From a plasmid: a DNA stretch of 64,000 nt. The notes below the pieces were generated by a model that saw nothing but the letters and a program-made list of their open reading frames with translations, did not search any database and was not told the origin of the DNA. Each line of letters opens with the position of its first letter. Within the stretch, counting starts at the first letter, position 1. A program made the translations under genes and the position numbers. The stretch lies in the NCBI RefSeq assembly GCF_988243305.1, contig NZ_OZ547137.1. One strand, given 5' to 3'. Below, one piece after another: positions 1,031-7,082 of this stretch.

Positions 1031-1378
1031 TTATATCCGGATGCCAGGCAGTTCTGTCCGTTTGGGATGTTGCCACGCGATCCCCTCCAGTAGCATGGAT
1101 AACAGAGCTGGCGTCAGGTGCACTTTCCCTTCCCGGGTTACCGGCCAGACGAAGCGGCCCCGTTCCAGGCGTTTGGCGAACAGGCATAACCCGTCACGAT
1201 CGGCCCACAGTATTTTCACCATTTTGCCATTGCGGCCCCGGAAGACAAAGATATGCCCGGAGAACGGGTCATCTTTCAGCGTGTTCTGCACCTTCGAAGC
1301 CAGGCCGTTGAAGCCACAACGCATATCTGTGATGCCAGCGATGATCCAGATTCTGGTACCGGTCGGCAGCGTTATCAT
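1031..1378 (-). CDS. tnpB: IS66-family TnpB (orf2)
   Basis: 115 aa ORF (MITLPTGTRIWIIAGITDMRCGFNGL...ILWADRDGLCLF) matches the conserved IS66 Orf2; ATGA overlap with upstream tnpA. Confidence 0.9.
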   Translation of the reverse strand: MITLPTGTRIWIIAGITDMRCGFNGLASKVQNTLKDDPFSGHIFVFRGRNGKMVKILWADRDGLCLFAKRLERGRFVWPVTREGKVHLTPALLSMLLEGIAWQHPKRTELPGIRI

Positions 1379-2052
1379 CGGATCCCCCCTTTCATTTCGC
1401 GAATGAGCACCCTAAGAAGTTCCGGAGTGAGGGGGGCAAACAGTTTTACCACACCTGATTTAAGATGCAGCTCACACTGTGGTGAGTCTACGGTAGTGTC
1501 ATTCTGGCTTTCATCAGACTTGTTTCGCCAGAAAGGATTTGTCACCGGTTTGACGGGGTCAGGAGTCTCAGTGATTGCCACCGGAACGGCCTGGCATTCC
1601 TGGAGATCCTCATCATTCAGTAAGCCCTCTTCATACAGTCTTTTCCAGTTAAACAACAGATTGTCATTAATATTGTGCTCTCTGGCGATCCGTGCAACGA
1701 CTGCACCAGGCTGTAATGCCTGTTTTACCAGCCTGATTTTAAATTCACGACTGTAGGAGGTTCGTCGTTCTTTTCGCCATGTGCTTTCGCTGATTTGAGG
1801 ATCATCAGGTAATTCCTTCTTTCTATTGGCATAAAGTATGGCATCGAGTTGGGCGACTGAAAGTGATTCAGGTAATGGCCAGGTAATACCGGAGGCATTA
1901 AATCGTTGAAAGAGATTATGAATGGTGGAATGACTGAGACCTAACTGCAGGGCGATAGCCCGGACAGATAATTGCTCGTCGAATCTTAGACGTAATGCGT
2001 CTGGCAAATAAGAGCGAAAGCCGGTGATATCTTTTGCTGTCTGAGAATTCAT
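1375..2052 (-). CDS. tnpA: IS66-family TnpA (orf1) with an extended, possibly chimeric N-terminus
   Basis: C-terminal half has [38 protein letters not shown] (IS66 Orf1 signature). N-terminal ~90 aa carries an HTH plus GITWPLP motif that recurs at 31961..32368 next to a different IS. Confidence 0.7.
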   Translation of the reverse strand: MNSQTAKDITGFRSYLPDALRLRFDEQLSVRAIALQLGLSHSTIHNLFQRFNASGITWPLPESLSVAQLDAILYANRKKELPDDPQISESTWRKERRTSYSREFKIRLVKQALQPGAVVARIAREHNINDNLLFNWKRLYEEGLLNDEDLQECQAVPVAITETPDPVKPVTNPFWRNKSDESQNDTTVDSPQCELHLKSGVVKLFAPLTPELLRVLIREMKGGIR

Positions 2053-2268
2053 CGTTCGTGTCCATCAATAGATGGACGCGATTGTTGCCAGACAGGACAA
2101 CCATCACAAGACGTCACAGACGGAGCGCTTACAAACCAGACGCAATCTGTCTATGTTAAAAAAATAACAAAGCCGGGTGGAATATATTCTGCCCATTTTA
2201 ATTTAAAACAAAGATTAGCGAGTGCTCTGGTGATTTGCACATGCGCAAATCTTTCAGCTCAAAGGAGG

Positions 2269-3303
2269 CTAGTCATCACGGTGATTACGTTCAAATCCCC
2301 TGCGCCCTCTTGCTGCCCATTCAGCATTGAGTATCACATAACGCTCCCAGCGTTCACGCAACTGTGCGAGCTTTATCGGTAATTCTTTGGTGACAAAGGC
2401 TTCAGGTATTTCAAAGTTGTCATCAAGATGCCCTTCCAGGAATGCATGGACGCCTTCCAATACATCAACCAGAGTGATGTTGTTACTTTGTTGCCCTTCA
2501 AGAAGTGGCCCCTGCCAACTATGCCAGAAGGTCTGATGGCGCAGACAACTTTCGTCATTCGCGAGCCGCCATAAATCCATAAAGATTCCTCGAGCAACTT
2601 TGAACGGCTGTTCATCAAACTGTTCGATGAGAAAGAAATAACACGGAATCTTGAGCGCGTTAATTCGCGCAATTTCAATTTCAGCATCACGGCGCAAGGC
2701 AATCAGATTGCTAAAGCGCGATCGCATACAGGCGATAGGGTTCAACACCCTTACCTTTTCATTCATTTCAGGCATACTGGGGCCGGTTGCTTCTACATAA
2801 AACGGGGCTGTATGCAGGTAAAGCTTTTCCCCCAGAAAATCAGAACGGTCGAAGCCTCCGGGCCGATCGATAATATCCACCACATTTGGCTCGTCAGGCG
2901 CATCCGGTACGGCAAATAAACGTCCATCATCCCGTTTGATATCGTGTGTGTCCTGATCGATAAGCATAAACTGCGCAAGGGATGGGGGCTGACCGTCTTT
3001 GTTTTCCCACGTTTTCACGTTGAGCGTTTTTGCTATAGCCGCAATATCATCTTTCCGGGCACTGTAGTCGCAGTCAACAGAAGTGGTGAGACGCTCATCA
3101 GGCAATCTGTCGCCGTATTGTGCATGATAATAGGATATCCAATATTGCACAGCCTGGCCGCCAACTGTGATAACGGCATGTTTGAGCTGGTCAGCGTTGC
3201 AGATCAACTGCTGATTTAGCAGATACATCTGCTCATAGGGGGGAATAACGTCTTGAACTGGCATAAAAAAACCATCAGCGAATGATGGTTTATTGTGCCT
3301 CAA
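2269..3303 (-). CDS. hypothetical protein (344 aa), function unknown
   Basis: Long uninterrupted ORF; no family recognised with certainty. A VGGQAV...TSVDCDY stretch is loosely reminiscent of nucleotidyltransferase-fold motifs. Confidence 0.5.
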   Translation of the reverse strand: MRHNKPSFADGFFMPVQDVIPPYEQMYLLNQQLICNADQLKHAVITVGGQAVQYWISYYHAQYGDRLPDERLTTSVDCDYSARKDDIAAIAKTLNVKTWENKDGQPPSLAQFMLIDQDTHDIKRDDGRLFAVPDAPDEPNVVDIIDRPGGFDRSDFLGEKLYLHTAPFYVEATGPSMPEMNEKVRVLNPIACMRSRFSNLIALRRDAEIEIARINALKIPCYFFLIEQFDEQPFKVARGIFMDLWRLANDESCLRHQTFWHSWQGPLLEGQQSNNITLVDVLEGVHAFLEGHLDDNFEIPEAFVTKELPIKLAQLRERWERYVILNAEWAARGRRGFERNHRDD

Positions 3304-3312
3304 AGTTCAGGA

Positions 3313-3468
3313 TCAGGCAAAAGCGATAGTATGGGAGAATTTGCTATTGGCTGACTTACTGAAACGGCTTTTCACGGCAGGCTTGTAACCGGCACGACCA
3401 CGCAAAACCTGCACCGCTACGGCTTCGTAGCGTTCATGCTGCTTTTGTTTAGCTTGTGCGGGAGACAT
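3313..3468 (-). CDS. small basic hypothetical protein (~51 aa), 10 bp upstream of the 344-aa ORF
   Basis: ORF 3313..3498; probable start at the Met of MSPAQAKQKQHERYEAV. Co-oriented and tightly spaced with the downstream ORF. Confidence 0.35.
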   Translation of the reverse strand: MSPAQAKQKQHERYEAVAVQVLRGRAGYKPAVKSRFSKSANSKFSHTIAFA

Positions 3469-3879
3469 AATTTTGTACCTGATGGTGGTTATATACAAAT
3501 AAGCTGTAGTAACTATACGTCACGAATCTACGTCACGCAATAGCGTACTATTGTTGCAATTTTGATGTACTTCCAGACTACTGTCTCATCCTGCAGTGCT
3601 TCCCGTTCTGCCTGCATTCCTTATTTACCGTATGTCCGGCTCAGTTAACCGGATTCAAATTCCGGTGTCCCTCCCGTCCTGACCGGTAGCAGACAAGCCC
3701 AAGCCTCCTGTAACAATAAAAGGGGTACCAAGCCGCAACCACCGAAATTTCCGGAATGCACAAATTTTGCGCTCGGCAACCTGTACGTAAGACCGCTGTT
3801 AACCGGACAGCAAAGAAATAGCTGTCTGGCGCGAAAAATCACTGCCCGTAACGTATCCATAGCTGGTACGAATAAATTC

Positions 3880-3917
3880 TGGGGTCTGAAGTCCAATGGA
3901 ACGAAAACGTACGTTAG
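3880..3917 (+). repeat. Tn3-family terminal inverted repeat (Tn1000/gamma-delta-like)
   Basis: ggggtctgaagtccaatggaacgaaaacgtacgttagt resembles the 35-38 bp Tn3/Tn1000 IR (GGGG...AATGGAACGAAAACGTACGTTA). Confidence 0.75.
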
Positions 3918-4603
<686 letters not shown>

Positions 4604-4702: not shown

Positions 4703-5104
4703 TTAGATGATTTCTTCCAATGCTGATTCCAGTTCTTTTACTTGCATTGCTCTAAGACGAGGAGCTAATGTTCGATGGGCGTTTAAGTAATCAATGGCTC
4801 TTGTTACCAGCTTTCCTCCGCCACAGACAACGAAATAACTCTGATGTTGTGTGTGTTGTGCATCAAGAACTGTGTGGCCTAGCTTCTCTATTGCGGTACC
4901 ACTCACTTCCTGCCATTTAGCCGTTATTTGAACGGTACCGGTATTAGTGAACAACAGGAAGTGGGCTATTTCATTCTTTCCCGCGATCAGACCAGGATAA
5001 CTGACATTTTTTTTAAACGTCATCGGAGCTTCTGAGTTACTTAGCTCAAAGCCTGCCCCAGAAATAATTGCTTCAATATCACGCAGTAATTCTGCTCTGG
5101 ACAT
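4703..5104 (-). CDS. hypothetical protein (133 aa), cargo of the Tn3-like cassette
   Basis: Uninterrupted ORF between tnpR and the intron; no family recognised. Confidence 0.45.
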   Translation of the reverse strand: MSRAELLRDIEAIISGAGFELSNSEAPMTFKKNVSYPGLIAGKNEIAHFLLFTNTGTVQITAKWQEVSGTAIEKLGHTVLDAQHTQHQSYFVVCGGGKLVTRAIDYLNAHRTLAPRLRAMQVKELESALEEII

Positions 5105-5214: not shown

Positions 5215-7082
5215 AGATCGGGATAGGGGCTGATCTCACGATTAGCCTCCTCCCACACCACCGTACATACGGGTCCGTATACGGCAGTTCGGTTATGTTT
5301 ATCGTCGCCTGCCTATAACTCCGGTAGGCCCAGTCTGACGAACAGGCGATTGGGAAGTGCTATGCTCAGTGCCGGACTACAGCTTATCCGCCATTGCTTA
5401 TGGCAACTCCCTACCGTTTGCGCTGCAAGGTCTTTGCTTACTCCCCGTCTGCGCAACTCTTTGAAGCGCTTGCTGCCCGTTTTCCACTGTTTCCACAGGA
5501 CACTTCGCAACCTTCGCCTTATCCACCTGTTCAGATCTCTCATCAGCGTTTGCCACTGGTTCAGTCCATAGTAGCTTTTCCATCCCGTCAGATATCGCTT
5601 TAACGGTTCGATAAGCTGCTCTAGGCTTTTGCCCGTGTTACGCCCCGTCAGTTCTCTTATCCGGGTTTTGAACCGCTTCACCGATTCCGGCAACACCACA
5701 CACCACACCTTTCTGCCCCTCCTGAAGCTGTAACCCAGGAACTTACGCGTCTCCGGAAGCGCTACCGCGCTCTTCTTCGCGTTGAGCTTCAGCTTCAGTT
5801 TCCGGTTCAGCCAGTGCGTCAGCCCCGCCATCATACGGTTGCCTGCCCGTTCACTCTTCACATACACATTACAGTCGTCTGCGTAGCGGGCGAACTTCAG
5901 GCCGCGTTTCTCAAGTTCCTTATCGAAGTCATCCAGCAGCAGATTCGATAACAGTGGCGACAGTGGGCCGCCCTGCGGCGTCCCTTCTGTCACCGGCATT
6001 ACCAGACCCGCTTCCATCACACCTGCATTCAGGTACCCGCGGATAAGTGACAGCACCCGTTTATCCGATACTCGTTTCGCTATCCGGCTCATCAGTACAT
6101 CGTGATTCACCCGATCGAAGAACTTTTCCAGATCGAGGTCAACCCCCCAGCTGTAGCCCGACTCGATGTATTTCTGAGCCTGCTTCACTGCCTGATGCGC
6201 CGAGCGTCCGGGCCGGAACCCGTAGCTGCTGTCGCTGAACGTCGCATCCCACTGTGCCTGCAACACCTGCATCATCGCCTGCTGGATAAAGCGATCCACC
6301 ACCGTCGGGATGCCCAACAGACGTTCGCCGCCGCCGGGCTTCGGGATAGTCACTCTTCTTACAGGGGATGGGCGGTAGCTGCCGGACAGCAGTTGCGCTT
6401 TCAGTTCCGGCCAGTGGTGTCTCAGATAGTCCGGCAGTTCGCTTACGCTCATGCCGTCGGCTCCCGCCGCACCTTTATTGGCCTTCACTCTTTTCAGGGC
6501 ATGCCTGAGGTTGACTGGTTCGCAGATGGCTTCCATCAGCCACGCTGTTGACGATGGACTTTCTCTGGTCGTCGGTGCCTGCACGGTTTCAGCCCCCTGA
6601 GAACCGGCGTCAGGGGCTTCACCCCGTCTTCCTGCATCAGGGTCGCGATACGTTTTCTGCTGCATGACCGTTCAGAACCTCCGCTGATACTCGTCACTCA
6701 TTACCGTTCGGGCCTTCAGACGCGCCTGTCCTACTATGCCCTCTGCTGACTCCTGTCCGCCGGTCAGCGCACCTTACGGTACGCTCAGTTCTGAATACAG
6801 AACGCCAGACAGGCCTCCCGGGGTAAGCTCAGCCGCTTTCACCACACACCTGCCCAATCTACCACCCCGGCTCTTGATGGTTATGGCCTTTGCAATCAAT
6901 GGCTTGCTCCGCCAGCCGGGTAGGCCTCATATCGGATTTCTGTTCGTCAGGTCATGGTTTTGCTCCACGCTTCCTTCAGATCCCGCCTCACGACGGCACC
7001 CTTGCGCTTCACGAGTCCTTCGCCACCATCAGGCTGGACAGGGGACTTTCACCCCCGAGCTGCTGAGCATGCCCGGCACACC
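5215..7082 (-). mobile_element. group II intron (bacterial class C-like; boundaries approximate)
   Basis: 5-prime end GTGTGCCGGGCATG... on the minus strand sits right after a terminator hairpin; domain V-like stem-loop (rc of 5255..5292) and domain VI downstream of the IEP ORF. Confidence 0.75.
5313..6665 (-). CDS. group II intron-encoded reverse transcriptase/maturase (no endonuclease domain evident)
   Basis: 450 aa with RT motifs (GIPTVVDRFIQQA, FARYADDCNVYV with YADD) and a C-terminal maturase X domain. Confidence 0.9.
   Translation of the reverse strand: MQQKTYRDPDAGRRGEAPDAGSQGAETVQAPTTRESPSSTAWLMEAICEPVNLRHALKRVKANKGAAGADGMSVSELPDYLRHHWPELKAQLLSGSYRPSPVRRVTIPKPGGGERLLGIPTVVDRFIQQAMMQVLQAQWDATFSDSSYGFRPGRSAHQAVKQAQKYIESGYSWGVDLDLEKFFDRVNHDVLMSRIAKRVSDKRVLSLIRGYLNAGVMEAGLVMPVTEGTPQGGPLSPLLSNLLLDDFDKELEKRGLKFARYADDCNVYVKSERAGNRMMAGLTHWLNRKLKLKLNAKKSAVALPETRKFLGYSFRRGRKVWCVVLPESVKRFKTRIRELTGRNTGKSLEQLIEPLKRYLTGWKSYYGLNQWQTLMRDLNRWIRRRLRSVLWKQWKTGSKRFKELRRRGVSKDLAAQTVGSCHKQWRISCSPALSIALPNRLFVRLGLPEL

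Follow-up and report, generated by a model that had tools for sequence, protein, structure and literature searches.

A conserved plasmid gene pair encoding a predicted AbiEii/MenT-type nucleotidyltransferase and a 51-residue partner, most likely a new type of toxin-antitoxin module

A 64,000-nucleotide (nt) stretch of plasmid DNA (contig NZ_OZ547137.1 of RefSeq assembly GCF_988243305.1; the whole stretch is hereafter called the window) carries, near its start, a small gene for a basic protein of 51 amino acids (aa), followed on the same strand by a large gene for a 331-aa protein. We find that the two genes form a real, conserved unit that is most likely a new type of toxin-antitoxin (TA) module. 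With a probability of roughly 0.6, we favor the reading that the large protein is a nucleotidyltransferase (NTase) toxin and the small one a mini-antitoxin, with toxin synthesis restrained by a terminator that also hides the toxin's ribosome-binding site. We infer the toxicity, the target, the chemistry of neutralization, and the biological role. Systems of this kind are already known; what is new is the variant, in its lineage, its miniature partner, and its terminator lock.

The layout resembles that of TA loci: the pair is compact and bicistronic with the small gene first, it is spread patchily over mobile elements (IncF plasmids, chromosomal islets, and a phage-like contig), and distant homologs appear to have swapped partners. 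An initial annotation, made from the sequence alone, had compared the organization to that of TA or small defense modules. The comparison is borne out insofar as purifying selection maintains a conserved small open reading frame (ORF) that is invariably linked to the enzyme gene.

The large gene and the predicted fold of its product

The large gene and its main motifs are as follows.

2269..3264, minus strand: large gene, 331-aa NTase-fold protein, proposed toxin; RefSeq relatives WP_001145107.1 and WP_001145103.1 (“hypothetical”)
3151..3162, minus strand: codons of G35-G36-Q37-A38, NTase motif I (hG[GS]-like), invariant in both alignments
3067..3081, minus strand: codons of S62-V-D64-C-D66, predicted catalytic DxD after an invariant Ser, invariant also in relatives of ~20% identity
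2875..2877, minus strand: codon of D130, candidate third catalytic carboxylate (motif III) in the strand VVDIID, invariant in the family and nearly so in relatives of ~20% identity

The large ORF had been described as 344 aa long and 10 bp from the small one, and both figures need correction. The TTG start at 3303 that gives 344 aa is an artifact of mechanical ORF calling; the RefSeq proteins and every homolog begin at ATG 3264 (MPVQDVIPPYEQ...), which gives 331 aa and therefore a spacer of 48 nt between the genes. Relative to the 330-aa RefSeq proteins, the window enzyme has one extra residue at position 283 (DDNFE versus DDFE), in a low-conservation loop of its C-terminal lobe.

A profile search over 1.84 billion representative proteins returned 40 homologs at E<1e-30 and 416 at E<1e-3, a small family found mostly in Enterobacterales. 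Two of the homologs' database entries bear the automatic name “AbiEii.” Neither the enzyme nor the small protein was matched by Pfam, NCBIfam, or PADLOC, in agreement with the initial remark that no known family is recognizable, and the only PHROGs match of the enzyme was to a family of unknown function, phrog_19559. Searches of PDB sequences with the enzyme, both family profiles, and the small protein gave nothing or chance nanobody matches only.

The initial annotation had also pointed to a GGQAV...SVDCDY segment loosely resembling NTase motifs. This segment is present, and its GG...SxDxD residues are invariant. In the family alignment, G35-G36-Q37-A38, S62-x-D64-x-D66, D130, R183/N186, and E197/R200 never vary, and in a second alignment, of relatives of ~20% identity, the GGQ, SxDxD, and R..N positions are still invariant. 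The three NTase motifs (hG[GS], [DE]h[DE]h, and h[DE]h) can be read as VGGQA (residues 34 to 38), D64-C-D66-Y, and V-D130-I.

Structure prediction, one of the checks proposed at the outset, gave an AlphaFold model of the enzyme on the family alignment with a predicted local distance difference test score (pLDDT) of 88.6 and a predicted template modeling score (pTM) of 0.87. The model has the bi-lobed, pol-beta-type NTase fold of Pb27, JHP933, ANT(2''), and MenT1/3/4, that is, of the superfamily that the Blower and Genevaux groups describe as DUF1814 NTases, comprising Pb27, JHP933, ANT(2'')-Ia, and MenT1-4 (bioRxiv 10.64898/2026.01.19.700257). Beyond the enzyme's own family, Foldseek searches of AFDB50 returned mainly proteins named “nucleotidyl transferase AbiEii/AbiGii toxin family,” in alignments that span the full length of the enzyme (E of 5e-11 to 1e-8; TM of 0.55 to 0.65). 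Because the modeled fold matches and the motifs are conserved, we assign the enzyme to the AbiEii/MenT-type NTases, as a predicted member by fold and motifs and by no current hidden Markov model (HMM). The lineage is thus of the AbiEii/MenT kind and lies outside current HMM libraries.

The invariant serine adds a more specific parallel. In the model, D130 lies on a beta-strand (128 to 132), and S62 lies two residues ahead of D64, on the loop preceding strand 65-68. Its spacing to the aspartate is identical to that of MenT3 S78/D80 and MenT4 S67/D69 (PMC7450476). By position, then, S62 sits where MenAT1-like systems have a Ser or Thr phosphoacceptor, on the loop just before the strand of the catalytic Asp. 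MenT3 S78, MenT1 T39, and AbiEii T65 are auto-phosphorylated upon antitoxin binding (PMC11375011; bioRxiv 10.64898/2026.01.19.700257); in MenT4, S67 is present yet not phosphorylated. Nearer the C terminus, the toxins have specific Lys and Asp residues, which in MenT3 are K189 and D211.

The small gene, the intergenic hairpin, and the promoter

Upstream of the enzyme's start codon we recognize four further features.

3313..3468, minus strand: small gene, 51-aa basic protein MSPAQAKQKQHERYEAVAVQVLRGRAGYKPAVKSRFSKSANSKFSHTIAFA, proposed antitoxin or neutralizer; RefSeq WP_000074142.1 (“hypothetical”)
3259..3299, minus strand: intergenic RNA element, terminator hairpin plus T-run; terminator-like site call, fold z-score of -3.1
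3512..3540, minus strand: likely sigma-70 promoter read from the sequence, -35 TTGCGT (3540-3535), 17-nt spacer, -10 TATAGT (3517-3512)
3516..3537, minus strand: direct repeat, two exact 9-nt copies of CGTGACGTA (3529-3537 and 3516-3524) with a 13-nt period; candidate operator

The small Lys/Arg-rich ORF reported initially in the same orientation as the long one is confirmed, with 6 Lys, 4 Arg, and 2 Glu and a net charge of about +8. It lies upstream of the enzyme gene in all 22 loci that we extracted, over enzyme identities from 95% down to 33%; these loci include a Beggiatoa metagenome-assembled genome, Photorhabdus, Aeromonas, and Erwinia chromosomal argA-recD islets. Its product keeps an N-terminal helix motif (K..QH..Y...V..G) and a hydrophobic C terminus (SFA, AFA, or AFF) around a basic, Ser/Lys-rich middle. 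The ratio of nonsynonymous to synonymous polymorphism (pN/pS) is 0.1 to 0.3 in unsaturated pairs, which indicates purifying selection: the ORF encodes a protein and is more than an RNA. The small protein had no match in Pfam, NCBIfam, PADLOC, PHROG, or PDB, and it is not a winged helix-turn-helix (wHTH) antitoxin of the COG5340/AbiEi type.

More distant relatives of the enzyme are accompanied by unrelated small ORFs of 49 to 67 aa that overlap or abut the enzyme gene. Three metagenomic loci (L013, 2847-3879; L009, 2805-3807; L010, 2813-3777) encode enzyme homologs of ~20 to 30% identity, each with an unrelated upstream ORF of this size. Such partner swapping is typical of TA families. Locus L013 adjoins RecT and exonuclease genes, which suggests a phage. 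For one homolog (P0057), a placement on a contig was not found.

We modeled binding by fusing the peptide to the enzyme through a (G4S)6 linker in AlphaFold with 18 paired sequences. In the fused model the peptide blocks reach a pLDDT of 72 to 93, with the non-helical segment YKPAVKSRFSKS at 93, and the linker stays at 33 to 35. This difference between peptide and linker points to direct binding of the predicted enzyme by the small protein.

On the opposite strand, a terminator-like hairpin with a T-run (3427-3442, plus strand; GTAGCGTTCATGCTGC TTTTGTTTAG) is antisense to the first part of the small ORF. An antisense RNA could stop there, or the hairpin may be incidental, as it overlaps the stretch that encodes the conserved KQKQHERY.

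The spacer contains a hairpin that the initial annotation did not describe. The small ORF's stop codon lies 21 nt ahead of it; the inner arms, AAACCATCA/TGATGGTTT at 3291-3269, form a 9-bp stem followed by a T7 run that ends exactly at ATG 3264, and in an outer helix GGCA pairs with the UGCC of AUGCC. A hairpin and T-run abut the ATG in about 18 of the 22 loci, with stems that differ in sequence (ACCATCA/TGATGGT, GCCCTC/GAGGGT, GCTCATC/GATGGGC, and ACCCCTGTGA/TCATAGGGGT). In a MAFFT alignment, 89.9% of cells pair, compared with 40 to 57% in slid registers. Compensatory double changes occur at two positions of the stem (A-U to C-G and A-U to U-A), and the covariation score was reached by 1 of 500 shuffles. 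The 3' arm is G-rich and resembles a Shine-Dalgarno (SD) sequence (GATGG, GAGGG, or GGTGG), 6 to 8 nt before the AUG.

The element has the marks of a Rho-independent terminator, namely, a GC-containing hairpin, a U-tract, and a drop in transcript downstream. From its sequence it looks like an intrinsic terminator that also occludes the translation start of the enzyme; the proposal that it doubles as a start-site lock follows from the pairing of the SD-like 3' arm and the AUG region. We saw no alternative antiterminator pairing when folding the hairpin or comparing loci, and an Rfam scan of 2100-4000 returned no family. Two other candidates were rejected. A terminator-like site on the plus strand (2175-2194) is not the module's own terminator, as its G-U pairs turn into mismatches on the gene strand, and a leaderless or internal promoter for the enzyme does not fit, since a T-run and not a -10 box lies upstream of the ATG.

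The likely promoter was missed by a consensus scan because its -35 box agrees at only 3 of 6 positions; related loci keep a -10 box (TATAGT, TATATT, or TATAAA) ~65 nt upstream of the small ORF. The direct repeat noted initially is exact, its copies overlap the -35 box and the start of the -10 box, and it is non-random: the window contains 3 copies of CGTGACGTA against 0.17 expected, a number that none of 100 shuffles reached. In relatives the repeat is partly conserved, as a looser (A/G)CGTA...CGTA pattern. The third copy stands isolated far from the module (37316-37324, minus strand; context gaaCGTGACGTAttcgtacgg) and may be due to chance or be a second site for the same binding factor.

Expression, distribution, and decay of the pair

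Published transcriptome sequencing of the pKpQIL-like plasmid pBIC1a in E. coli TOP10 lists two hypothetical genes after the Tn4401 tnpR gene, pBIC_00015 at 2,261 and pBIC_00016 at 76 reads per kilobase per million (RPKM) (PMC6286996, Table 1). The former is the second most expressed gene of the plasmid, after blaKPC-2 (2,706), and the authors commented on neither gene (PMC6286996). Set against the RPKM values, the normalized counts of 9,013 and 1,942 (PMC6286996, supplementary file 4) imply genes of ~155 and 993 nt. From these length ratios and the gene order in pKpQIL, we infer that pBIC_00015 and pBIC_00016 are the small gene and the enzyme gene. The ratio of small-gene to enzyme-gene transcript across the hairpin would then be ~30:1 (PMC6286996). 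The drop from 2,261 to 76 is consistent with a terminator, and differing mRNA stability could add to it.

The initial annotation had held that the proposal would fail if the large protein matched a housekeeping plasmid function or if the small ORF were not conserved or expressed. The large protein has no housekeeping match, and the small ORF is conserved and, by this correspondence, highly expressed (PMC6286996).

Over a 1.8-kb region around the module, the window shares 99.7 to 99.8% identity with E. coli plasmids, among them 55989p (pAA) from the enteroaggregative E. coli (EAEC) strain 55989, in which both genes are labeled “hypothetical protein.” A survey of neighborhoods across plasmids, also proposed as a check, showed that the pair travels together: among 72,556 plasmids in PLSDB, the promoter, small ORF, and hairpin region occur in 1,010 records and the enzyme in 1,034, 991 of these near full length. 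Most of the carriers are conjugative IncF plasmids from Klebsiella, E. coli, Enterobacter, and Citrobacter. The module is present in ~1.4% of sequenced plasmids, including the epidemic pKpQIL KPC plasmids and the EAEC pAA virulence plasmids. In intact IncF backbones (e.g., pSARB26_03) it lies between the RepA/oriV region and parMR, and in pKpQIL it adjoins Tn4401. It also occurs in chromosomal argA-recD islets of Erwinia and Pantoea. A literature search (RefSeq accessions, pKpQIL, IncFII/AbiEii, and transposon sequencing topics) found no study that gives a function to either gene or treats the pair, and none of the database entries searched assigns a function to either gene.

Across genomes, the decaying member of the pair is the enzyme gene. 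The region was found in 377 of 5,426 complete E. coli genomes, with full-length copies almost all on plasmids. Chromosomes of E. coli B and BL21 carry an intact, identical small ORF (WP_000074142.1), with its promoter, beside an enzyme pseudogene disrupted by an internal stop and truncation by an insertion sequence (IS) (BL21-RIPL NZ_CP083273.1, 825393-826052; locus L038, 5078-5737). A plasmid-type ssb gene and an autotransporter gene lie near this relic. In three other loci (L028, L029, and L035) the enzyme gene is truncated and the small ORF intact; CFT073 and Nissle keep only a 3' remnant. The decay of the enzyme gene beside an intact small ORF argues that the small protein is harmless by itself and that the cost of keeping the pair lies in the enzyme. 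E. coli B and BL21 express the small-gene relic from the chromosome, and a toxic effect of the enzyme could therefore go unnoticed in tests that use BL21-derived hosts.

In the window, the module is hemmed in by mobile-element debris, in contrast to its setting in the replication-partition backbone of pSARB26_03. Directly downstream of the enzyme gene are IS66-family accessory genes (1031-2052, minus strand; tnpA-like, 225 aa, and tnpB-like, 115 aa). On the other side, a serine recombinase/resolvase gene (3956-4603, plus strand) is divergent from the module. Beside it is a 133-aa ORF (4703-5104, minus strand) whose RefSeq label in 55989p is PD-(D/E)XK nuclease superfamily protein. Farther upstream, amid IS fragments, a 450-aa ORF (5313-6665, minus strand) has, as is typical of a group II intron, features of a reverse transcriptase and maturase (YADD motif).

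Proposed mechanism and competing explanations

We propose that a strong promoter drives a short transcript for the 51-aa basic protein, which would be largely unstructured save for one helix. Most transcripts would end at the intrinsic terminator, and the rare read-through transcripts would carry the NTase ORF with its SD-like sequence and AUG sequestered in the same hairpin, so that the small protein would far outnumber the enzyme. The small protein would bind the enzyme and hold it inactive, by analogy with MenA1-MenT1 through occlusion of the active site, provoked auto-phosphorylation of S62, or both. If the small protein were not replenished, as upon plasmid loss, transcription shut-off, or infection, the unbound enzyme would modify an essential RNA by adding nucleotides (by analogy, extending tRNA 3'-CCA ends), and growth would stop. 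More tentatively, with odds that we place slightly short of even, the pair could be an overlooked addiction or abortive infection system in full: an unrecognized AbiEii/MenT-like clade with a basic, mostly disordered 51-residue neutralizer, possibly acting via S62 auto-phosphorylation, and a hairpin that is both terminator and translational lock. The backbone site beside replication and partition genes favors a maintenance role.

The closest analog of this module is MenA1-MenT1 (Rv0078B/Rv0078A) of Mycobacterium tuberculosis. MenA1 is only 7.4 kDa, and a single helix suffices to induce auto-phosphorylation of MenT1 (PMC11375011). Sequence similarity to MenA1-MenT1 is undetectable for either protein, the enzyme described here is larger (331 aa), with a long C-terminal helical lobe as in MenT3/4 and AbiEii, and its gene is parted from the small gene by the hairpin that would serve as terminator and cover the translation initiation region. 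In AbiEi-AbiEii systems (DUF1814/PF08843 plus COG5340, including MenAT3 and MenAT4), the partner is a wHTH protein of ~200 to 300 aa and autoregulation uses inverted repeats; here the PF08843 HMM is unmatched, the 51-aa partner has no recognized domain, and the locus has direct repeats and a putative terminator gate. Because the partner is a 51-aa protein and not a wHTH AbiEi, autoregulation of the AbiEi type through inverted repeats is not expected. Identity to JHP933 (Helicobacter pylori plasticity zone) and Pb27 (Paracoccidioides), which are orphan DUF1814-type NTases, is ~10%, and we know of no pairing of either with a small neutralizer.

In ToxIN, a high ratio of antitoxin to toxin transcript results from a terminator placed between the two genes. 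The present module resembles it in having a terminator-like element between partner genes, with a ratio of ~30:1 (PMC6286996), and differs in that the proposed antitoxin is a protein and not a repeat RNA, and the proposed toxin an NTase and not an endoribonuclease.

Several observations weigh against the NTase toxin and mini-antitoxin reading. The Pfam scan gave no PF08843 match for the enzyme and, among 20 of its distant relatives, no PF08843 and a single weak DUF2204 match. The PADLOC defense models matched neither gene, and a tblastn search of the INPHARED phage collection (50,697 records) found no match. The docking comes from a single linker-fused AlphaFold run without a scrambled-peptide control. 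Our literature search found no experiment on toxicity, neutralization, or nucleotidyl transfer for any family member. Finally, the idea that the direct repeat is an autorepression operator is weak: relatives preserve the repeat only in part, and the very high steady-state expression of the small gene disfavors tight autorepression.

The same molecular module could serve mainly in phage defense, by abortive infection as in AbiE, and not in plasmid addiction; the NTase would then be freed or over-produced when infection shuts off host transcription or when termination is altered. The closest fold family, AbiEii, is the toxin of a very common abortive infection defense system (bioRxiv 10.64898/2026.01.19.700257), copies occur in the chromosomal argA-recD islets of Erwinia and Pantoea and on the RecT-bearing phage-like contig, the enzyme family forms a PHROG, and the presumed terminator gate could respond to phage antitermination. 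We nevertheless regard defense as the unlikely main role, given that neither PADLOC nor the 50,697 phage records gave a match and that the site between the replication and partition genes of IncF backbones is the usual place for maintenance functions. Even less probable, in our judgment, is a non-toxic enzyme that acts on small molecules or other substrates (ANT/Lnu-like resistance or anti-defense), with the small ORF as an attenuation leader peptide. ANT and Lnu proteins have only ~160 to 180 aa; the enzyme model aligns with AbiEii over its full length and has the extra C-terminal helical lobe of AbiEii, MenT3/4, and JHP933. Unlike leader peptides, the small protein is under purifying selection along its whole length and is modeled as enzyme bound. 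The distance of 21 nt from its stop codon to the hairpin, the lack of a visible antiterminator pairing, the distant relatives in which the small ORF overlaps the enzyme gene with no hairpin, and the decay of the enzyme gene instead of the small one all speak against attenuation.

MntA-type minimal nucleotidyltransferases are antitoxins that AMPylate their toxin (HepT-MntA, type VII). On this precedent the polarity could be reversed, such that a harmful small basic protein is neutralized by nucleotidylation; the small protein does have conserved Tyr and Ser residues. We consider this very improbable: E. coli B and BL21 keep an intact small gene and promoter beside an inactivated enzyme gene, several other genomes retain the small ORF with a truncated enzyme, the peptide is hydrophilic without the character of a membrane toxin, and the RPKM of the small gene is ~30-fold above that of the enzyme gene (PMC6286996). 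We give equally little credence to an RNA antitoxin upstream of the enzyme (type III, ToxIN-like) with an incidental 51-codon ORF. The order of promoter, short and highly expressed transcript, terminator, and toxin does mirror ToxIN. Tandem Repeats Finder found no tandem repeats, which rules out a ToxI-like array, and there was no Rfam match; the terminator itself is present. The ORF is constrained at the protein level with many synonymous changes, its termini are conserved over partner identities of 33 to 95%, and AlphaFold places the peptide confidently. The resistance, reversed-polarity, and RNA antitoxin explanations are thus each disfavored by specific results.

An NTase toxin held by a mini-antitoxin and a terminator lock would have consequences beyond this window. 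The gene pair is carried by ~1,000 PLSDB plasmids, including pKpQIL, the main vehicle of the KPC carbapenemase, and is annotated as “hypothetical” throughout. If our reading is true, these plasmids have an unlisted persistence or defense determinant, and the MenT/AbiEii toxin superfamily would extend into Enterobacterales with a minimal antitoxin. The module would also provide a compact system for asking whether antitoxin-induced auto-phosphorylation is general, as well as an example in which a terminator, by also locking translation, sets the ratio of toxin to antitoxin.

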